Assembly: GCA_964556545.1 (NCBI GenBank)
Contig: CAZKWE010000092.1
Location: 9,213-73,212 of the forward strand
DNA length: 64,000 nt
Reading direction: 5' to 3'
DNA from: an uncultured Campylobacteraceae bacterium
Lineage (GTDB): Bacteria; Campylobacterota; Campylobacteria; Campylobacterales; JALSKU01
Positions 35,005-63,975 of the stretch are shown one piece after another. Position 1 is the stretch's first letter. Each line of letters begins with the position of its first letter. A model generated the notes under the pieces. The model searched no databases. It was given only the letters and a program-made list of their open reading frames with translations, and was not told where the DNA came from. Made by a program: the position numbers and the translations under genes.

Positions 35005-35808
35005 TTATGCCTCTTGTTTTTCAGCTTTGATTCTTGATATTATAGCCAACAGTGAAAGAAGGCTTATACCTATAAGCACCCAAAAACCCCATGTAGGATA
35101 TGAATGTGTTGTAAACTGGGCAACTTTACCATCACCAAAAACCGTAGGAGTAAACGGTTTTATTTTAAAGGCTCCCCATGCATGCATATGATGACCGAAC
35201 CAATAAAGCCAATATGCATAAAATCCCAAAAATATAACTGGCAATGCAACAGGTATAAACATCAGTATGTTCAATATCTTGCTATCATAAAGTATAAAAT
35301 ATACCAAAAGCAGTGATAAAAATACCAAAGCATAAGGAGCTATCATTCTAAGATAAGGTGCTCCTCTTTTCATAGGATCCATACCTATAAAGTGATTGAT
35401 AGTATTCATCTCATGAACATCTCCGCTAAATCCGTCAAAATGATAATATACGGGAATTCCCTCGGGAAATGCCTCTTTAGGATAGTTTGGAGCTTCAAGT
35501 GCAACATACCATATAGGAGCTGTTACTACATTCAACTCTGCATCATTTTTTATCATGTTCATCAAATGAACTTCACCTGTTTTCTTAAGGTCCTCTTTTA
35601 CTGCATCAGGTGCATTGGGACTTACATATCTTCCTTTTTGGTAAAAATTCCATGTTTTTGCCATCATAGGTGTTATCTTATTTACTTGGTCAGTTTCAAC
35701 CAAGTCTTGAATATTGTGTGTCAAAACTGCTGGTATAACAAACCAATACAGCAACATACCAAGAGCGATAAGTGCAAAAATCCTTGATTTGAGAAGGGTT
35801 TTGTTCAT
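35005..35808 (-). CDS. nosB: membrane protein NosB
   Basis: Polytopic membrane protein directly downstream of nosZ, as in the Wolinella-type cluster. Start set to ATG 35808 (MNKTLLKSRIF, preceded by AAGGAAAC), because track start 35847 lies upstream of the transcription start inferred from the FNR-type promoter. Confidence 0.65.
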   Translation of the reverse strand: MNKTLLKSRIFALIALGMLLYWFVIPAVLTHNIQDLVETDQVNKITPMMAKTWNFYQKGRYVSPNAPDAVKEDLKKTGEVHLMNMIKNDAELNVVTAPIWYVALEAPNYPKEAFPEGIPVYYHFDGFSGDVHEMNTINHFIGMDPMKRGAPYLRMIAPYALVFLSLLLVYFILYDSKILNILMFIPVALPVIFLGFYAYWLYWFGHHMHAWGAFKIKPFTPTVFGDGKVAQFTTHSYPTWGFWVLIGISLLSLLAIISRIKAEKQEA

Positions 35809-35865
35809 CTTAGTTTCCTTTATAAAATTTGAAAAGTATTCTATCATAATATTATTTATTCTTTA

Positions 35866-35879
35866 TTGATATTCATCAA
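35866..35879 (-). promoter_or_regulatory. CRP/FNR-family box TTGATATTCATCAA upstream of nosB
   Basis: Perfect TTGAT-N4-ATCAA. A -10-like TAGAAT (35843-35838, minus strand) lies 29.5 bp from the box centre, which is class II geometry. Confidence 0.65.
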
Positions 35880-35913
35880 GTCATAAAAGTGTATATTTAA
35901 GTAAATTATAAGA

Positions 35914-35940
35914 TTACACTCCGCAGTCTGCGGAGTGTAA
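35914..35940 (-). terminator. strong hairpin immediately after nosZ stop
   Basis: ttacactccgcag-t-ctgcggagtgtaa, 13-nt perfectly complementary arms 5 nt after the nosZ stop, followed on the minus strand by a T-rich stretch. Confidence 0.6.
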
Positions 35941-35945
35941 TTATT

Positions 35946-38549
35946 TTAGAATAGATTTGCGTTTTTATCTACCCATTTGAAGTATTCAATGATATCTTTA
36001 ACTTGTTTCTTGCTCATACCCTGGTTAGGCATTCTAAGATTGAAGTAATGAATCATTGAGCTAACATAAGGCTCATTATACATTTTTTCAGGATTAAGTA
36101 TCCACTCAGTTACCCATTTTTCACCGTTAGGATGTCTTTGAAGAACACCTGTCAAGTCCGGACCTGAACTTACTTTTCCTATAACATGGCATCCGCCGCA
36201 TCCGCCTTCGTCAAATGCTATCTTACCTCTCTTGGCCGCTTCACTCATAGGAGTAGCTAACTTACTAACAAGAAGATCTCTGGCTCTAATACCAACATCT
36301 GCAGTTTTAACCATATATTGCCAAATCATATTTTCAAACAGAATTGCTTTTTCAATATCTCCGGCTTTTAGAGCTTTATCGGACAACTCTTTTTGTTTTT
36401 TGATTTTACTGTACTGATCAAGTGCATCAACAACCAAGTTTTTAACAACCGGATATTTCTCATAGTGATTCTCTTTTAAGAATTTAACGACACTTTGGAT
36501 AACTTTATCGGTTGCATTGTTAACGGCAACTGTTTTCTTGTACTCTGCCATCAACTGTTTCTTGCTCATTTTTGCTCTGTGAATTTTCTTAGCACTTACA
36601 TATTTTTTGTTTGGATCTTTAACAAGCAAGTATCCCATCATTTCAAGGTGAAGTGCAGAACAGAACTCAGTACAGTAGTAAGGGAAAATACCCTCTCTGT
36701 CAGCTTTAAATGTAAGAGCTACGGTTTTACCAGGCTCTAAAGAAGCATGAACATTGTACTGATCTACTGTAAATCCGTGAGTCTCATCTTCAGCTCTTTC
36801 AAGGTTTGTTAGATAAAATGTTACCGTATCTCCGAGATTTACATTTACATGTTCAGGATTGATATGGCTTCTTACCAAAGTTCCATAAACATAAACATGT
36901 TTACCTTTTCTCACGATTCTCTCTTGTCCTGCAAGAGTTTTACCTCTATGAGGCTTGTCTGTAAAAGGATTGTATCCCATTTTATATCTAACATAAGGCT
37001 TGATCTTGCTTGCTCTGATGGCAACTGCCTGGTGAGGCTCACCAAGACCTATTGGTAGATCGTAAAGCATTTGCATTTTTTTGCCTCTTATATCAATAAG
37101 CTGATGGTTTTGAGGATGCAAAGGTCCGATTCTATCAAATCTGTCTATTGATAACTTGTTTAATGCGATTATATAATCACCCTGAGGATCTTCGGATTTA
37201 CCTTCCATACCGCAAAGGTGACCTATGTTGTAGTTAACATTTATTCTATCTGCAACTTTACAAGTTAGATAACTCCATTTTACAACTTGGCTGTCAACAT
37301 AAAGTGAAGTGTATATTTCACCGGTTTTTTTCCAATGTTTACCTATTTGGTTATGCAATGGTCCAAGTCCCAACTCTGCTTGACAATGTAAAGCTTTTTT
37401 CATATCAAGAATCGGAATACCAAACGGGTCTTTTCCGACAAACTCTTTATTTTTAAAAAGTTTCATCATTTTTGCAAAATCATAAACTGAAGCATGGGTA
37501 TCAAGTTTACCGCAAACTACTACATACTTTCCATCAGGTGTAACATCAACACCGTGTGGTGATTTTGGCTCAGGAACCAAGAAAAGACAGTTGTTTTTTA
37601 CAGCTACATCAATAGGTATAACTTTCATACCGTTAATGACTTTTACATTTTTTGGATTTTCTGCAAGTTTTGCAAGTTTTTTCCAGTTATATACTTGTAA
37701 AAAGTCCGTATCGTTTCTTGAACATCCTGCTTCAAAAGGAGGAAGACCTTTTTCGATACCGCCTGTATACATTTCAGAGTTAAAACTGTTTGTAAAACCC
37801 CATCCGTAACTTGCCTCTTTACCTGCATCTGAAAGATCTTGCATATACGGAGGAAGTTCAAGTGTAAAAGATTTTTTTACATTTATCTTTCCTGTTTTGT
37901 TATTAAACTTCCAAATTGTCACACCGCCTCTGTAAGAATCAACATACTCACTCATAGGATGCCAATTGTTATCCAACGGTGCCGCATACTGACAAGCTTC
38001 CAAGATATATTCACTATTTGGAGTAAAGAAAGCTCCACCGTGATCACTTTTGAAAACCGGGTTTACAACTATTTGCTTTGTAACAAAGTCTTTCAAATCA
38101 ATTACAGCGATTCTCGGATTGGCTTTATCATTGATAACAAGCCATTTTCCGTCATATTTTCCGTTTGTTTCAGAGAGTCCCGGGTGGTGAGTATCACCCC
38201 ATGTTATCTTTTTGCCCCTTATATTACCTTCGGCAAGAATCTTTTTGGTATCATCATCATAACCCCATCCCTGCCAAGGCTCCGGAGTAAATACACCTAT
38301 ATACTTTAGTATCTTCATAGAAGGTACGCCGTAAACCATCATTTGTCCGGCTTGACCGGTCGAACTGAAAACCAAGTACTTGTCTCTACCGCCGCTTGGC
38401 AGATAAGTTTTTGCTGCCGCAAGCAAATCTTGCTGGGTAAGATGCCTCTCTTTCATAACTTTCTCAAGTTCACTTTGAGCTGAAAGCAAGGTCATACCCA
38501 CCATTGTACCTAATGCAACGGTAGCTACTTTTCTAACCATTTGCTTCAT
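35946..38549 (-). CDS. nosZ: clade II nitrous oxide reductase with C-terminal cytochrome c domain (cNosZ)
   Basis: 867 aa. Sec-type signal peptide, DTHHPG CuZ-region motif, CuA site YCTEFCSALHLEMMGY, C-terminal CGGCH haem c motif. Confidence 0.9.
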   Translation of the reverse strand: MKQMVRKVATVALGTMVGMTLLSAQSELEKVMKERHLTQQDLLAAAKTYLPSGGRDKYLVFSSTGQAGQMMVYGVPSMKILKYIGVFTPEPWQGWGYDDDTKKILAEGNIRGKKITWGDTHHPGLSETNGKYDGKWLVINDKANPRIAVIDLKDFVTKQIVVNPVFKSDHGGAFFTPNSEYILEACQYAAPLDNNWHPMSEYVDSYRGGVTIWKFNNKTGKINVKKSFTLELPPYMQDLSDAGKEASYGWGFTNSFNSEMYTGGIEKGLPPFEAGCSRNDTDFLQVYNWKKLAKLAENPKNVKVINGMKVIPIDVAVKNNCLFLVPEPKSPHGVDVTPDGKYVVVCGKLDTHASVYDFAKMMKLFKNKEFVGKDPFGIPILDMKKALHCQAELGLGPLHNQIGKHWKKTGEIYTSLYVDSQVVKWSYLTCKVADRINVNYNIGHLCGMEGKSEDPQGDYIIALNKLSIDRFDRIGPLHPQNHQLIDIRGKKMQMLYDLPIGLGEPHQAVAIRASKIKPYVRYKMGYNPFTDKPHRGKTLAGQERIVRKGKHVYVYGTLVRSHINPEHVNVNLGDTVTFYLTNLERAEDETHGFTVDQYNVHASLEPGKTVALTFKADREGIFPYYCTEFCSALHLEMMGYLLVKDPNKKYVSAKKIHRAKMSKKQLMAEYKKTVAVNNATDKVIQSVVKFLKENHYEKYPVVKNLVVDALDQYSKIKKQKELSDKALKAGDIEKAILFENMIWQYMVKTADVGIRARDLLVSKLATPMSEAAKRGKIAFDEGGCGGCHVIGKVSSGPDLTGVLQRHPNGEKWVTEWILNPEKMYNEPYVSSMIHYFNLRMPNQGMSKKQVKDIIEYFKWVDKNANLF

Positions 38550-38639
38550 ATATCCTCCTTAAAAATTTTTGAATTTCTGTTTTTATAAACCAAACATAAT
38601 TCTATGGTGAAATTATAGTTAAATTTATGTTAAATTTCC

Positions 38640-38653
38640 TTGATTATCATCAA
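38640..38653 (-). promoter_or_regulatory. CRP/FNR-family box TTGATTATCATCAA upstream of nosZ
   Basis: Perfect TTGAT-N4-ATCAA. A consensus TATAAT (38617-38612, minus strand) begins 29.5 bp from the box centre. Predicted transcription start is about 38605, giving a 5' UTR of about 56 nt. Confidence 0.7.
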
Positions 38654-38844
38654 GTCATAAATGTGTTATTTTAAGTTTTATATTTATGCTATTTTAAGCT
38701 TTTCTATAAAAATACCTAAATACCGGGATCCGTTTAAAAGAAATTATTTATTGTGATATTTAAAATAATTACAAAAAAATTGTAAATTTTATACATTTAT
38801 GCTAAAATACGCCAAATTCTTCATATAACCTTAAGGAAACAGTT

Positions 38845-49963: not shown

Positions 49964-50755
49964 TTGGAAAAGGCTGATATCATAGAAAGCTTAACAGGTG
50001 TAAACCGGGAGAGAAAAAAGAGTCGAATTCCTGCGAAACTTGATTTTTATCAAAGTGCAACAGGATTATTTTTAGGACTTTTTATGTGGGCTCATATGAT
50101 CTTTGTATCGTCTATACTTTTAGGCAACAATGCTATGTATGACATTACAAAAATGTTTGAAGGACAATTTATATTTGGTGAGGGAAAACCTGTTATTGTA
50201 AGTATTTCGGTATTTATCGTGTTTGTAATTTTTATCGCACATGCAGGACTTGCAATGAGAAAATTTCCCATAAATTACAGGCAGTATAAAACTTTTAAAA
50301 CAAGTATGAATCTGATGAATCATGATGATACGAAAATGTGGTTTATTCAAGCTTATACAGGATTTGCCATGTTCTTTTTGGGTTCTGTGCATTTATATAC
50401 AATTATGACAAAAGCTGACAAAATAGGACCTTATGCATCAAGTGACAGAGTTGTAAGCGATTGGTTTTGGCCACTTTACATACTTCTTCTTTTGGCTGTT
50501 GAATTTCATGGTGCCATCGGGCTTTACAGACTATGTGTAAAATGGGGATGGTTTGATGGCGACAATCCAAAACAGACAAGAGCCAATCTAAAAAAAGCAA
50601 AAAAAATCGTAACGGTTATATTTTTAACCTTAGGAGTACTATCTTTGGCAGCATATATTAAGATAGGTATAGCACACAAACATCAGTACGGACAAAGATA
50701 TGTTCCAACATCATCTATATCTATACAATACAACAAAAACAGAAAGGTAGCATAA
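49964..50755 (+). CDS. frdC: fumarate reductase dihaem cytochrome b subunit
   Basis: 263 aa. Long stretches are near-identical to my recollection of W. succinogenes FrdC ([46 protein letters not shown]). TTG start. Confidence 0.85.
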
Positions 50756-52755
50756 TGAAAGTTATTTATCATGATGCTTTAATCATAGGTGGCGGATTGG
50801 CCGGTCTTAGAGCCGCTGTTGTTGCTCAAAAAAGAGGACTAAATGCGGTAGTCTTATCACTTGTGCCGGTTAAAAGATCGCACTCCGCAGCAGCTCAGGG
50901 CGGTATGCAGGCAAGTTTGGCAAACTCAAAAATGGGTCAAGGAGATAATGAAGATGTTCACTTTGCCGATACCGTAAAAGGAAGCGATTGGGGATGCGAT
51001 CAGGAAGTTGCAAGAATGTTTGTTACTACAGCTCCCAAAGCCATAAGAGAGCTGGCATCTTGGGGAGTCCCGTGGACAAGAATCAAAAAAGGCCCCAGAA
51101 ATGTTGTCATAAATGCCCAAAGAACCACTATAGTTGAAGATGAAAATGCTCACGGACTCATACAGTCTCGTGACTTTGGCGGTACAAAAAAGTGGAGAAC
51201 ATGTTTCACTTCAGATGCAACAGGTCATACCATGCTTTACGGTGTTGCAAATGAAGCTATAAAAGACGGTGTAAACATAGAAGATAGAAAAGAAGCAATT
51301 TCAATTATCAACAAAGATGGCAAATGCTATGGTGCAGTTGTCAGAGACCTTGTTACCGGCGAACTTTCTGCTTATGTAGCAAGAGCGACTCTTATAGCAA
51401 CAGGCGGATACGGAAGAATTTATCAAAATACTACAAATGCCGTTATATGCGAAGGCATAGGTCAAGCTATAACACTTGAAGCAGGCGGTTATCTTGGCAA
51501 TATGGAGGCAATACAGTTTCACCCGACTCCGATTGTTCCTTCGGGTATCCTTTTGACAGAAGGCTGCAGAGGCGACGGAGGAATTTTAAGAGATGTTGAC
51601 GGACATAGATTTATGCCTGATTACGAACCGGAGAAAAAAGAGCTTGCAAGCCGGGATGTTGTAAGTCGAAGAATGATGGAGCATATAAGAAAAGGCAAAG
51701 GCGTACCTTCACCTTACGGTCCTCATTTATGGCTTGACATATCTATCTTAGGCAGAGAACATATAGAGAAAAACTTAAGAGATGTTCAGGATATAGCAAA
51801 AACATTCAATGGTATTGACCCTGCAGATGAAGGTAAAAAAGGATGGTTACCGGTTCGTCCTATGCAGCACTACTCCATGGGTGGCATAAGAGTCAAGCCT
51901 ACCGGTGCCGCTTACAATATGGAAGGTCTTTTTGCCTGTGGTGAAGCAGCATGCTGGGATCTTCACGGCTTTAACAGACTTGGAGGAAACTCAGTCTCTG
52001 AAACTGTAGTATCAGGTATGATAGTGGGAAATTATATGGCCGATCACTGTGAAAAGGTAGATATTGATTTTGATACGGATTTTATCAAGAAAGAGATCAA
52101 AAAACAGCAAGACTATTTAGATGGCATTATTCACAATAATGGCGGAGAAAATCTTTATGACATAAGAAGAAAAATGAGAGAAATAATGGATGAAAAAGTC
52201 GGTATCTTTAGAACCGGAAATGAGCTTGAAGAAGCCGTAGAAGAGTTAAGAGAATTATATATAAAAAGTAAAAATATTTCTATTAAAAATAAAAATACCG
52301 ATTTCAATCCTGAACTTGTAAATGCCTACAGACTTCCGAAAATGCTTAAAATTGCATTATGCGTTGCCAAAGGAGCGAGAGACAGAACTGAAAGCAGAGG
52401 TGCACACTACAGAGAGGATTTCTTAAAAAGAGATGACGCCAACTGGCTAAAAAGAACTCTTGCTTCATGGGGAATGGAAGATGACAATGAACCTATACTA
52501 ACCTATGAGCCATTGGATATTATGAAGATGGAAATGCCTCCTGCTTTTAGAGGCTATGGCAGAAAAGGTATGATTATAGAAAATCCTTTGAGTGCCAAAA
52601 GGCAAGAAGAAGTTGATGCCATAAGAAAAAAATTAGAATCAGAGGGGAAAGACAGATGGGAAATTCAGGATGCTTTGATGCATTTTGAATTACAGCCTGA
52701 ATATAAAAGAAAAAATGAAAGATTAAATGAGCCTTTAGGAGATGACAATGAGTAA
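50755..52755 (+). CDS. frdA: fumarate reductase flavoprotein subunit
   Basis: 666 aa. FAD motif [12 protein letters not shown], covalent-FAD histidine context [10 protein letters not shown], active-site HPT and RGAHYRED. Confidence 0.9.
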
Positions 52756-53476
52756 TGAAGGAAGAGAATTAACTATAACCGCATTAAAGTATGATCCCCA
52801 GGTAAAGGCTTCAAAGCCTCATTTTGTTGAATATAAAATAAAAGAGACCCCGGGCATGACCCTTTTTGTGGCACTAAATTATATAAGAGAGCATCTTGAT
52901 TCTGATCTGTCTTTTGATTTTGTTTGTCGTGCCGGAATTTGCGGAAGCTGCGGTATGATGATAAATGGCAAGCCAAGACTTGCCTGTAAAACTTTAACAA
53001 GTGATTTTAAAGACGGAAAAATCCAACTCTTGCCAATGCCGGCTTTCAAACTTTTAAAAGACTTATCGGTCAATACCGGAGAATGGATGCACGGAATGTG
53101 CGAAAGAGTTGAAAGCTGGATACATTCTACCAAAAAAGTTGATATTGCCAGACTTGAAGAAAGAGTAGAGCCCCAATCGGCTCAGGAAACTTTTGAACTT
53201 GACAGGTGTATTGAATGCGGTATATGTGTTGCGGCCTGCGGAACAAAAGTTATGAGACCTGATTTTATCGGTGCCGTAGGTCTTAACAGGGTTGCCAGAT
53301 TTGAAGTGGATGTACATGATGAAAGAACTGCTGAAGATTTTTATGAACTCGTCGGAGATGATAACGGGATTTTCGGATGTATGACACTTTTGGGATGTGA
53401 GGACAACTGCCCTAAAAATTTACCTCTTCAGACTAAAATTGCCTATATGAGAAGAAAATTGGTTGAACTTAGATAA
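52748..53476 (+). CDS. frdB: fumarate reductase iron-sulfur subunit
   Basis: [2Fe-2S] motif [39 protein letters not shown]. Start is ATG 52748 or 52742. Confidence 0.9.
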
Positions 53477-59607: not shown

Positions 59608-59631
59608 GGGTGGCGAGAGTCACCCTTTTTT
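59608..59631 (+). terminator. Rho-independent terminator after lipoprotein gene
   Basis: gggtg-gcgagagt-caccc followed by ttttttatttttt. Overlaps the stop codon of the convergent histidine kinase gene. Confidence 0.6.
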
Positions 59632-61189
59632 ATTTTTTATACAGCTTTATGCAAAAAACTGCCCCGTCTTCGTCATTGTATGCCTTTAAACTGCCTTTCA
59701 TATTTTTTTCTATGATAAGTTTTGACATATACAGTCCTATTCCCGTACCCGAAGAAGTATCTTTAGTGGTAAAATACGGTTCAAATATCTTTTCTATCGG
59801 TTTTGTCCGTATTCCGCCGGCATTATCTTTGATATATAGTTTTATTATATTATCATTATTTGATTCTAATGATATGACAACTTGTGGATTTTTTATGCTA
59901 TTTTTCATAAGAGCATATTTTGCATTTGAAAGAATATTTAAAACAACTTGTTCAAACTCACTCTCATAACCGTATATTTTGATATCTTTGTCTATATTGA
60001 TAACAATTTTGATATTTTTATCTTTTAAAGATGATTCCATGATCGAAAGAACTCTCATAACAGCCTGTTTTATGCTAAAAAGTTTCATTTTTTTATCCGG
60101 AATAAAAAAGTTTCTAAAATCATCTATGGTTTGAGACATAAATTCCAAAAGCCTGTCTATATCATCTCCTTTTTTTTGCATATATTCACTATCAAGCAAA
60201 CCTTTTTGATATCTCATTTTTATATTCATCATAATTGATGAAAGCTCATTTAACGGCTGTCTCCACTGATGAGCTATATTGCTTATCATTTCACCAAGAG
60301 CTATAAATTTTGACTTTTGAATTAAAAATTGATCTTTTTCCCTATTTTTTTCTACTTCTTTTTTTACCCTTTCTTCCAAATTTCTGTTTAGATTTTCAAG
60401 TTCAAATGCTTTGTGACTTACTTCGTCTCTGTAATTTTGAAAAAATCTGTCTATTCTATTGCCAAGAAATATAGCAAACAAAAAAGCTATTATATAAAAT
60501 ACTAAATATACTATTACTGTTAAAATTATCTCTTTTTTTACACTTTTTAAGAGTTCACTTCTTTTTTTTGCTATAGATTTTTCTATATCATCAAGATACA
60601 CACCTGCCGCCACAACCCAGTTGTATTTTTTATACAGTTTAAAATATGACAGTTTCAATATCTTTTTAACTGTTTTTGGTTTTTTATATCGGTACATTAC
60701 AAATGATTCACCCTTTTTCTTTATATCTTTTAAAAACTGTTCTCTAAACATTTTCCCGTCGGCATCTTTGTATTTTGAAGAGATATATTTACCTATAAGA
60801 TCCGCTCTATTTGGATTGATAAACATTTTGGCAAATTTTTCTCCGCCATTAAAATTGATAATTTTATAAACAAATATATAATTCAGTCTGTTTTCTCCAA
60901 ATCTTATGGAACTTATATAATCTTTTATCAATTTCAGTGATTTTTTATTGTCAATATATTCATTTTTATCCATAAAATCTATAAAATGCACAACCGAGTC
61001 AACTTCTCTTTTTAAAAATATTTTTTGGTTGTTAATTCTCTCTTTTTTTAAATTATCCAACTCTTTTTCAAACTCTTCATACTGCCTGTCGGTAGAAAAA
61101 TATACTGTAAAAGTCATAAGAGCAAAAAGTATAACGGTAAAAGAGATGATTATAACTTTTGCTATATTGTTTTCTTTGATAATTTTCAT
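59630..61189 (-). CDS. sensor histidine kinase with periplasmic Cache domain
   Basis: 519 aa. TM, a Cache_2-like domain (YIFVYK...YRYKKP...KLSYFKLYKKYNWVVAAGVYLDDIE), TM, H-box IAHQWRQPL, N box NILSNAKYA, G boxes DNAGGI and GTGIGL. Confidence 0.8.
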   Translation of the reverse strand: MKIIKENNIAKVIIISFTVILFALMTFTVYFSTDRQYEEFEKELDNLKKERINNQKIFLKREVDSVVHFIDFMDKNEYIDNKKSLKLIKDYISSIRFGENRLNYIFVYKIINFNGGEKFAKMFINPNRADLIGKYISSKYKDADGKMFREQFLKDIKKKGESFVMYRYKKPKTVKKILKLSYFKLYKKYNWVVAAGVYLDDIEKSIAKKRSELLKSVKKEIILTVIVYLVFYIIAFLFAIFLGNRIDRFFQNYRDEVSHKAFELENLNRNLEERVKKEVEKNREKDQFLIQKSKFIALGEMISNIAHQWRQPLNELSSIMMNIKMRYQKGLLDSEYMQKKGDDIDRLLEFMSQTIDDFRNFFIPDKKMKLFSIKQAVMRVLSIMESSLKDKNIKIVINIDKDIKIYGYESEFEQVVLNILSNAKYALMKNSIKNPQVVISLESNNDNIIKLYIKDNAGGIRTKPIEKIFEPYFTTKDTSSGTGIGLYMSKLIIEKNMKGSLKAYNDEDGAVFCIKLYKK

Positions 61190-61276
61190 TTTTTTCCTAT
61201 TTTTATTGATTTTATTGGTAAATTATTATATCATACATTGCTATAACATTTTATGAACATCTCTAAAAGGTAAAAT

Positions 61277-61954
61277 ATGAAAAACAAATTGGAACATTTA
61301 AAAAATTATACTGTTTTATATGCTGAGGACGAACCGGGTACAAGAGAAAATATATCCGAACTTTTAAAAATGATGTTTAAAAAAGTATATGTTGCTGACA
61401 ATGGAGATGATGCATATGAACTTTATCTTAGACATATGCCTGATCTTGTTATAACGGATATAAAAATGCCCGGACTTGACGGAATAGAGCTTGCAAAGGA
61501 GATAAGAAAGATAAGCTCTTCTACCCAGATTATAGTTATTTCGGCTTATACTGATGTTGATTATATGCTTAGTGCGGTTGAGCTTTCACTTATAAGATAC
61601 ATAGTAAAACCTTTGACGCAGACAAAGTTAAACAAAGCTTTGGAACTTTTCTTAAAAAATAAAGAAAAAAGAAAAATTTATGAACTTGAAGACGGATGGC
61701 GATATGATGAAGATAAACATATCACTATCGACCCTGAAGGAAATGAACATAAACTTACAAAAAAAGAAGACAGACTTTTAAAACTGCTTTCCGAAAAAGA
61801 TAGAACAGTAACTTATAAAGAGATAGAAACTTATGTATGGGGATATGATAATGCAATGAGCCAAAATGCCCTAAGACTGCTCGCAAAAAATCTTAGAAAA
61901 AAACTTCCTGATGGTCTTGTAAAAAATATACATGCTACCGGATACAGACTGTAA
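61277..61954 (+). CDS. OmpR-type response regulator
   Basis: 225 aa. Receiver domain (DLVITDIKMPGLDG, VKP) and C-terminal winged-helix (LT.KE..LL..L, TGYRL). Confidence 0.8.
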   Translation: MKNKLEHLKNYTVLYAEDEPGTRENISELLKMMFKKVYVADNGDDAYELYLRHMPDLVITDIKMPGLDGIELAKEIRKISSSTQIIVISAYTDVDYMLSAVELSLIRYIVKPLTQTKLNKALELFLKNKEKRKIYELEDGWRYDEDKHITIDPEGNEHKLTKKEDRLLKLLSEKDRTVTYKEIETYVWGYDNAMSQNALRLLAKNLRKKLPDGLVKNIHATGYRL

Positions 61955-63156: not shown

Positions 63157-63975
63157 ATGTTTAGCCTGATTGATAAGATACTCGGCAGCATAAACAGATC
63201 CATTGCAGCTTTCGGCATTGCCGCCGGAGTTGCATTGGCTTTTATAAATGTTGTTGCAAGATACGGTTTTAACGGTTCAATTACATGGGCTAGTGAACTT
63301 ACAAACTACTTTTTTATCTGGAGTGCCTTTTTTGGAGCAGCTTACTGCTTTAAAAAAGACTCTCATATCTCTGTTACCATTCTTATGGAAAGACTTCCCG
63401 CACCTCTTATGAAAGCACTTATGATACTTTCTCATATTTTTGTTATCATATATCTCTCTGCAGTTGCATACTATGGTTACAAGTATATTCTTTTGGAAAT
63501 CGATATGGAAGAAGTATCTGTTGATTTAATAGTACCGCAGATATCATGGCTTGGTATGAGTGACGAATGGGCTGTTCCTATGTGGATACCATATTCCGTT
63601 ATACCTTTGGCTTTTGCTTCAGCCGCTGTAAGAGTTTTTGAAAAATTGGTTGAAATTATCAAAACTCCTGCCGAATTAGCCAGACGAGAGAGTGAAGCAG
63701 AGATGATACTTGCAAAAATGCAAGAAAGTGAAGATGAAGAAAAACTTGAAAAAATTGAAAAAATAGTAGAAACCAATGAAGAGATTGACAAAATTGAAAG
63801 AATAGAGGAAAAATTAGAGACACTTGAAAAAGAAATGGAAAAAATCATAGAAAATGAGGTTGATTCTCTTGATATAGATGAAAAAAGAGAAAGACTTAAA
63901 AAAATTGAGAAAAAATTAGAAACTTGTCATCAAAAACTTTCTCAAAAATTGACAAATTTAAAAAAGGAGAGTTAA
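63157..63975 (+). CDS. dctQ: TRAP transporter small permease DctQ with about 100-aa Glu/Lys-rich C-terminal extension
   Basis: The first 165 aa or so form 4 TM segments as in DctQ. Residues from about 171 to 272 are charged heptad-like repeats (EKLEKIEKIVE..., IERIEEKLETLEKEMEKI...). Confidence 0.75.
   Translation: MFSLIDKILGSINRSIAAFGIAAGVALAFINVVARYGFNGSITWASELTNYFFIWSAFFGAAYCFKKDSHISVTILMERLPAPLMKALMILSHIFVIIYLSAVAYYGYKYILLEIDMEEVSVDLIVPQISWLGMSDEWAVPMWIPYSVIPLAFASAAVRVFEKLVEIIKTPAELARRESEAEMILAKMQESEDEEKLEKIEKIVETNEEIDKIERIEEKLETLEKEMEKIIENEVDSLDIDEKRERLKKIEKKLETCHQKLSQKLTNLKKES

Follow-up and report, generated by a model that had tools for sequence, protein, structure and literature searches.

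What switches on nitrous oxide (N2O) reduction in a bacterium whose nos promoters have no usable -35 hexamer? This question is raised by a stretch of 64,000 nucleotides (hereafter the window) from an uncultured Campylobacteraceae bacterium (assembly GCA_964556545.1, contig CAZKWE010000092.1, positions 9,213 to 73,212), which carries on its minus strand the N2O reductase gene nosZ, followed by nosB and the other accessory genes up to nosL. It is mainly through organisms with a clade II NosZ that the greenhouse gas N2O is removed biologically; to our knowledge, how nosZ is switched on in clade II is little understood, and studies have covered only Wolinella and a single strain of Nitrosophilus. 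We consider it likely that the nos genes of the window are served by two separate, activator-dependent promoters, PnosZ and PnosB, each combining a Crp/Fnr class II box with an upstream flank that would provide an additional contact, and that a hairpin lies between the two units.

Upstream of nosZ, the box TTGATTATCATCAA is found at 38640-38653, and the plus-strand ATTATA at 38612-38617 reads TATAAT on the minus strand. The box and this -10 hexamer are separated by 22 nt, and the box centre is 29.5 nt from the first base of the hexamer, which is invariant in the window's clade (NosZ identity of at least 90%). The original prediction had pointed to these two elements and to the recurrence, upstream of nosB, of a 37-nt module consisting of the box and its upstream flank. 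The first two are read directly from the sequence, and the recurrence holds as well, as the second copy of the module, TTGATATTCATCAAGTCATAAAAGTGTATATTTAAGT, occupies 35866-35902 and shares 31 of 37 positions with the first (hand count). The nosB copy furthermore has a -10 hexamer of its own, TAGAAT (35843-35838, minus strand), which had escaped the earlier reading; it follows the box at an identical spacing of 22 nt and, being preceded by TGA, takes the extended -10 form. In a contig of a metagenome-assembled genome (MAG) that is 99.68% identical to the window over 22 kb (GCA_054029715.1, L120), the nosB hexamer is TACAAT as against TAGAAT in the window, and the TAnAAT form is kept.

The nosZ box (TTGATGATAATCAA) and the nosB box (TTGATGAATATCAA, 35866-35879) both match all 10 specified bases of TTGAT-N4-ATCAA. 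When +1 is set 7 nt after the -10 hexamer, transcription is predicted to start near 38605 for nosZ, with a 5' untranslated region of about 56 nt, and near 35831 for nosB; the boxes would then span -48 to -35, with a predicted centre at -41.5 in both. The -35 positions read AGGAAA for nosZ and ATAAAG for nosB, that is at most two of six matches to TTGACA, and a consensus scan listed no sigma-70-type promoter using either of the nos -10 hexamers.

Such boxes are commoner in the window than chance would give, as TTGAT-N4-ATCAA occurs three times against 0.32 expected, a count that none of 100 shuffles reached, and the 37-nt module has two copies against 0.00 expected. Of the six sites of the looser form TTGA-N6-TCAA, just two combine an intergenic location with a -10 hexamer placed 21-23 nt further on towards the gene, and these are the nos sites. 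The remaining perfect box (50040-50053) was considered as a promoter and rejected: it is located inside the coding sequence of frdC, where it encodes KLDFYQS, and no -10 hexamer is present at 21-23 nt. It is probably a coding coincidence within frdCAB (49964-53476). The TTGA-N6-TCAA sites at 2248, 4025 and 32727 were also discarded as promoters, all three being intragenic.

Directly after the nosZ stop codon, at 35913-35941 on the minus strand, the sequence can fold into a hairpin with a 13-bp stem, which may be a terminator or a 3'-end stabiliser. It folds with an energy of -19.8 kcal/mol (z = -7.1), and compensatory changes are found in 10 of the 13 pairs when seven relatives are compared. 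This covariation indicates that nosZ and nosB-L, with the hairpin between them, are by prediction separate transcription units, so that a second promoter would be needed for the latter.

The promoter architecture was compared across 80 metagenomic nosZ loci, 6 genome loci recovered by a scan for the module and 8 further loci of close relatives. An exact TTGA-N6-TCAA box was searched for in the 300 nt before nosZ and the 260 nt before nosB, and hexamers with at least five of six matches to TATAAT were counted as -10-like at each offset after the box. Counted over about 85 related nos loci, the box is present upstream of nosZ in 52 of 79 loci and upstream of nosB in 52 of 74, over a range of NosZ identity of 74-100%. 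A -10-like hexamer follows 42 of the 53 distinct nosZ boxes (30 at 22 nt and 12 at 23 nt) and 51 of the 52 distinct nosB boxes (41 at 22 nt, 4 at 21 nt and 6 at 23 nt), and no other offset has more than 9 hexamers. In the nosB promoters, the sequence of the spacer diverges (identity 0.62) with its length fixed at 22 nt. Such a fixed distance from box to -10, with a variable sequence in between, is what characterises a site for a class II activator. The class II geometry centred at -41.5, proposed at the outset for nosZ from a single sequence, is thus borne out as a prediction by a spacing that is kept across dozens of diverged loci, and it fits the published start-site estimates for Nitrosophilus labii. 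These comparative data suggest that the class II architecture of the Crp/Fnr type is general for vent Campylobacterota, with one promoter for nosZ, one for the accessory operon and a hairpin in between. As a promoter pair of this class, the window provides a further example of something already described, since a box upstream of nos genes is in the literature.

The part that is modestly novel is the flank, which its conservation marks as a probably real and constrained element, specific to the clade. In the transcribed orientation it reads CTTAAAATAACACATTTATGAC at PnosZ (38654-38676, minus strand) and CTTAAATATACACTTTTATGAC at PnosB (35880-35902, minus strand), and it would cover -49 to -71 in both. 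The clade comprises 10 distinct nosZ and 10 distinct nosB promoters, and all 20 share T at -69, AAA at -67 to -65, CAC at -60 to -58, T at -54 and GAC at -51 to -49. In the nosZ promoters, 15 of the 23 columns of the flank are invariant; in the nosB promoters, 12 of 23 are, compared to 3 of 22 in the spacer (p = 0.011) and 2 of 47 further upstream (p = 8e-6). The mean pairwise identity of orthologous nosB promoters is 0.85 in the flank and 0.87 in the box, as compared to 0.62 in the spacer and 0.41 further upstream. When nosZ copies are compared with nosB copies, it is 0.80 in the flank, 0.38 in the spacer and 0.27 further upstream. Differences between the copies that are specific to the nosZ or the nosB type are kept across genomes, which indicates that the two copies are not undergoing homogenisation. 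In some genomes, the homology between the nosZ and nosB copies reaches to about -84 (TAATCTTA..TATAAAACTTAAAA). The upstream half of the promoter was probably duplicated in the ancestor of the clade and then kept by selection.

The module is also restricted in its distribution. A scan of one genome per species with the query TTGATNNNNATCAAGTCATAAA gave 32 hits, of which 6 fall in four MAGs of the window's clade, all at nosZ or nosB promoters; 25 belong to unrelated phyla and share only the pattern of the query, and the last one, in an Arcobacteraceae MAG (L010), is without the rest of the flank. The original prediction would have been weakened by copies of the module at random non-promoter sites; within the clade, the collection scan found it at nosZ and nosB promoters only. 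A dispersed repeat or mobile element was dismissed for this reason, the window itself holding only two copies. One of the unrelated matches, in a Bacteriovoracaceae MAG (L009, 673-697), is a perfect palindrome, GACTTGATTTGAATCAAGTC, adjoining an Fnr-like gene (open reading frame, or ORF, 1-666), and could serve as a box for autoregulation. At 88% NosZ identity and below, outside the clade (L113; L034 and L118, both with 87%), other motifs take the place of the flank. Another clade has a conserved flank at nosZ only, GTGTTAAATTAGTGTTAAAT, a direct repeat with an 11-nt period that abuts the box (L051, L052, L056, L059, L064, L067, L069, L076, L079 and L111).

No Crp/Fnr protein was found in the window, either by Pfam on 46 of its 70 ORFs with 70 aa or more, among them every ORF of the size of a Crp/Fnr protein, or by phmmer on all ORFs with Escherichia coli CRP and FNR and the regulators of seven campylobacterotal relatives as queries; the absence of such a gene, which had been noted beforehand, is thereby corroborated. 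In the loci of 17 relatives, however, a gene with cNMP_binding and HTH_Crp_2 domains precedes nosZ by 1-2 kb on the same strand (these loci include L094-L097, L101-L105, L107, L108, L045, L063, L065, L070 and L075). The L094-L108 group has TTGAC-N4-GTCAA, and not TTGAT-N4-ATCAA, as the box of both promoters. In Wolinella succinogenes, the Crp/Fnr-type regulators NssA, NssB and NssC up-regulate Nap, Nrf and Nos in response to nitrate, nitric oxide (NO) and N2O (PMC6682613), as the original prediction had stated for nos.

A different kind of regulatory gene is also encountered next to nosZ. In 13 relatives (L118, L089, L034, L063, L053, L106, L077, L057, L046, L078, L039, L054 and L071), the genes directly upstream of it code for a PAS histidine kinase and a response regulator of the OmpR type. 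At several of these loci, nosZ is without a Crp/Fnr box, and the upstream promoter contains TTAACA-N5-TTAACA repeats and a conserved GCGACnCAAAAGAAAC. Our literature search found no report of a nos-adjacent PAS kinase/OmpR system. The window does contain, at 59630-61954, a divergent pair whose members are, on the minus strand, a histidine kinase with a Cache domain and, on the plus strand, a regulator of the OmpR type, located beside a TRAP transporter (DctQ, 63157-63975). This pair is probably a dicarboxylate-sensing system. It was considered as the system binding the flank and rejected as an orthologue of the nos-adjacent one: its sensor domain is Cache and not PAS, and its regulator scores 131 bits, as compared to 276-379 bits among the orthologues.

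What the flank could be was examined on the clade alignment. In the flank, no second Crp/Fnr dyad is seen at -62.5, ACACA lacks a TGTGA partner, and a NarL 7-2-7 pair is absent, the best TACYYMT heptamers matching at five of seven positions each and being without inverted symmetry. The sequence accordingly rules out a further FNR-like dyad, the other half of a CRP site and a NarL pair. An IHF site (WATCAANNNNTTR) has no match in it, and a divergent or antisense promoter was rejected because L015, L022 and L028 do not conserve its -10. The invariant A and T positions are phased by about 10 bp, and alongside them stand the strictly invariant CAC and GAC triplets. The original prediction had seen in the flank a second site or an UP-like element: the constraint implied by either proposal is apparent in the conservation figures given above, and neither of the two is singled out by them.

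One interesting possibility, which we put forward tentatively, is that the flank serves as the operator for another regulator, which would recognise it by its sequence and either co-activate with the Crp/Fnr protein bound to the box or gate that protein, in which case nos transcription would depend on two signals. The E. coli nir and nrf promoters offer a precedent, as FNR at -41.5 is combined there with NarL or NarP further upstream. The invariant CAC at -60 to -58 and GAC at -51 to -49 are conspicuous in a genome of 34% G+C, flank and box are equally well conserved at two promoters that evolve independently, the module is specific to nos promoters, and other clades have different but equally conserved motifs at the same position, such as GTGTTAAATTAGTGTTAAAT; the PAS kinase and OmpR-type regulator next to nosZ in some relatives furthermore suggest that factors besides Crp/Fnr act on the nos promoters of this group. 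Against such an operator, the flank offers no convincing dyad or direct repeat, an ATGAC...ATGAC with an 11-nt period being present in some members only, and no candidate regulator emerged, the sole OmpR-type regulator of the window showing only paralogue-level similarity to the nos-adjacent one. Alternatively, the flank could be an UP-like or curved-DNA element, in which a phased A-tract (-67 to -64) and T-tract (-57 to -54) would position the C-terminal domain of the RNA polymerase alpha subunit (alpha-CTD) upstream of the activator. At CRP and FNR class II promoters, alpha-CTD does sit just upstream of the activator, which is where the flank is located; the flank accompanies the box at both promoters, with the invariant AAA and T about 10 bp apart. 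We nevertheless regard this proposal as rather doubtful. UP elements are A/T-rich and recognised through the minor groove, with no specific G/C bases required, which leaves the invariant CAC and GAC unexplained, and an alpha-CTD site should be more generic than the flank, as other clades have the same box and spacing without its sequence.

It is unlikely that the flank reflects an extended, asymmetric recognition by the Crp/Fnr regulator itself, for example by one Nss paralogue that would discriminate nos promoters in this manner: GAC does abut the TTGA half-site in 20 of 20 promoters, but the conservation is one-sided and extends over 23 nt, compared to the approximately 4 nt of flank contacted by characterised Crp/Fnr dimers, and it has no symmetric counterpart downstream of the box. 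The three Nss paralogues of W. succinogenes do share targets without a known basis for discrimination (PMC6682613), a point in favour of this reading. The same low order of probability applies to a functionless flank, left over from promoter duplication or gene conversion and conserved only because the clade is young. The two copies are homologous to about -84 in some of the genomes, which does speak for a common descent by duplication, and the element is absent outside the clade. A neutral remnant is made unlikely, though, by the adjacent DNA, which is nearly randomised (0.27-0.41 upstream, 0.62 in the nosB spacer) next to a flank at 0.80-0.85, and by the type-specific differences, which leave no room for an ongoing homogenisation. 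Finally, the boxes themselves might be chance palindromes in AT-rich DNA and the nos promoters constitutive. AT-rich genomes do provide many -10-like hexamers, and a scan of the region gave 17 promoter-like sites against 14.9 expected. The box counts are however far above chance, the position-specific spacing is kept over 100 or more diverged promoters, Crp/Fnr genes stand beside nosZ in relatives, and published data point the same way (PMC11539149, PMC6682613); we hold this explanation to be very improbable.

Returning to the two activator-dependent promoters, the nos cluster of this hydrothermal-vent Campylobacterales genome would be transcribed from PnosZ and PnosB, with the hairpin after nosZ separating the two units. 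As no usable -35 hexamer is present, the TTGAT-N4-ATCAA site centred at -41.5 would recruit a dimeric Crp/Fnr activator that contacts RNA polymerase directly. This activator could be a regulator of the Nss/Dnr type responding to nitrate, NO or N2O and encoded outside the window. The flank, T.AAA-N4-CAC-N6-GAC at -49 to -71, would most likely give a further protein contact that works together with the activator bound to the box, made either by a second sequence-specific factor or by alpha-CTD docking on the phased A/T tracts.

Several points weigh against this model or limit it. What we show directly are the sequences with their spacing and conservation, the covariation of the hairpin and the presence or absence of regulator genes; from these we infer the start sites, the identity of the activator, its activating and not repressing action, and the role of the flank. 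The regulator is only assumed, as the window is without a Crp/Fnr gene, and so is the sign of the regulation, one Crp/Fnr gene of N. labii having been inferred to relate negatively to the expression of nosZ (PMC11539149). The conservation of the flank comes from 10 nosZ and 10 nosB promoters of one shallow clade, so that relatedness inflates it, and the comparison of far-upstream identity is ungapped. In addition, the invariant CAC and GAC are not predicted by a contact of the alpha-CTD/UP type, and neither a dyad nor a direct repeat that would clearly be typical of a known regulator family was found in the flank.

With these points in mind, the nos promoters of Campylobacterota look modular, combining a common Crp/Fnr box with lineage-specific extra sites. 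It may be, though we advance this with reserve, that the element at -49 to -71 is the operator of a second regulator specific to nos in this vent Campylobacterales clade, that nos control has two inputs (Nss at -41.5 and an upstream factor) and that campylobacterotal nos promoters are built on this plan with second sites differing between lineages. If so, these second sites would comprise the present flank, the GTGTTAA direct repeats, the TTAAC-N6-TTAAC spacer repeats and the nos-adjacent PAS kinase/OmpR regulator. The binding of a second factor to the flank would add a layer of control specific to N2O reduction. The data give exact positions for the box, for the CAC, GAC and A-tract of the flank and for the TTAAC spacer repeats.

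These last repeats are found at PnosZ only. The nosZ spacer contains the element TTTAAC-N5-TTTAAC (38618-38634, minus strand, predicted -29 to -13), which abuts the -10 hexamer. TTAAC occurs at the two identical offsets in 19 of 62 distinct nosZ promoters (NosZ identity 81-100%) and in none of 55 nosB promoters. A second -10-like hexamer, TAGAAT at 38604-38599, was considered as the real -10 of nosZ and rejected, other clades conserving only the hexamer that abuts the second TTAAC. This TAGAAT is included in the nosZ leader TTCACCATAGAAT (38599-38611, minus strand), which is conserved in the clade and not shared by other clades. The spacer element has the same layout over the core promoter, two hexamers 5 nt apart, as the HP1043/HsrA site TTTAAG-N5-TTTAAG of Helicobacter pylori (PMC8345958). 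It differs from it in its last base, which is C and not the functionally important G, and in its location, the HP1043/HsrA site lying over the -35 region (PMC8345958).

The nos cluster itself is of the Wolinella type of clade II, in a window with a G+C content of 33.6%. nosZ (35946-38549, minus strand) encodes a clade II, Sec-dependent N2O reductase of 867 aa with nos_propeller, cupredoxin and C-terminal cytochrome c domains. nosB (35005-35808, minus strand) encodes 267 aa from an ATG at 35808 with an AGGAAA ribosome-binding site, and the tblastn alignments of relatives begin at residue 1 from there. The longest nosB ORF starts at 35847 and would take in the -10 hexamer and the predicted start site; homologues align with the ATG at 35808. 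Downstream of nosB, nosD/G/C1/C2/H/F/Y/L extend on the minus strand to about 27647, in the order nosD, a 4Fe-4S protein gene (nosG), nosC1, a cytochrome c gene (nosC2), nosH, nosF, a gene for a NosL-like protein, nosY and two more NosL genes. The gene identities given in the original prediction, nosZ and nosB, are confirmed. Divergent from nosZ are a CmeU-like small ORF and an alanine racemase gene. The closest NosZ proteins are those of Campylobacterales MAGs from hydrothermal vents, and the nearest named relatives by NosZ are Nitratifractor and Hydrogenimonas, with 82-84% identity.

How do these promoters compare with known systems? The class II promoters activated by FNR in E. coli have the same core TTGAT-N4-ATCAA, the same position at -41.5 and the same lack of a -35 hexamer as those of the window. 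The NarL/NarP sites at about -70 of nirB and nrfA are reminiscent of the conserved element directly upstream of the activator site, but the flank is without a NarL 7-2-7 pair and E. coli is phylogenetically remote. The sensor acting at the window promoters is likely not an O2-labile [4Fe-4S] FNR. Campylobacter jejuni has NssR (Elvers et al., 2005, as cited in PMC11539149). NssR belongs to the same regulator subfamily, and its box is TTAAC-N4-GTTAA. Some relatives of the window's locus have hybrid TTAAC-N4-ATCAA boxes at the same position, whereas the boxes of the window have pure TTGAT half-sites of the FNR/Dnr type.

The Nss system of W. succinogenes is closer, as it comes from the same phylum, serves a clade II cluster of the same type (nosZ-B-D-G-C1-C2-H-F-Y-L) and uses the same consensus TTGA-N6-TCAA upstream of nos genes (Kern and Simon, 2016, as cited in PMC6682613 and PMC11539149). 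It differs from the window in that no nss gene is present in the latter, and the flank at -49 to -71 is not mentioned in either of the two articles (PMC6682613, PMC11539149). In N. labii HRV44, TTGA-N6-TCAA boxes precede napA, norE, nosZ and nosB, their first base being located 48-49 nt upstream of the starts estimated from RNA-seq; Crp/Fnr genes stand beside nap and nor, and no flank element is described (PMC11539149). The nosZ gene of this strain has only mismatched boxes, which overlap the start site (PMC11539149), whereas that of the window has a perfect box at the class II position. In N. labii, as predicted for the window, nosZ and nosB belong to separate units (PMC11539149), and the exact box of N. 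labii nosB, with its first base 48 nt from the start (PMC11539149), has the very geometry deduced here.

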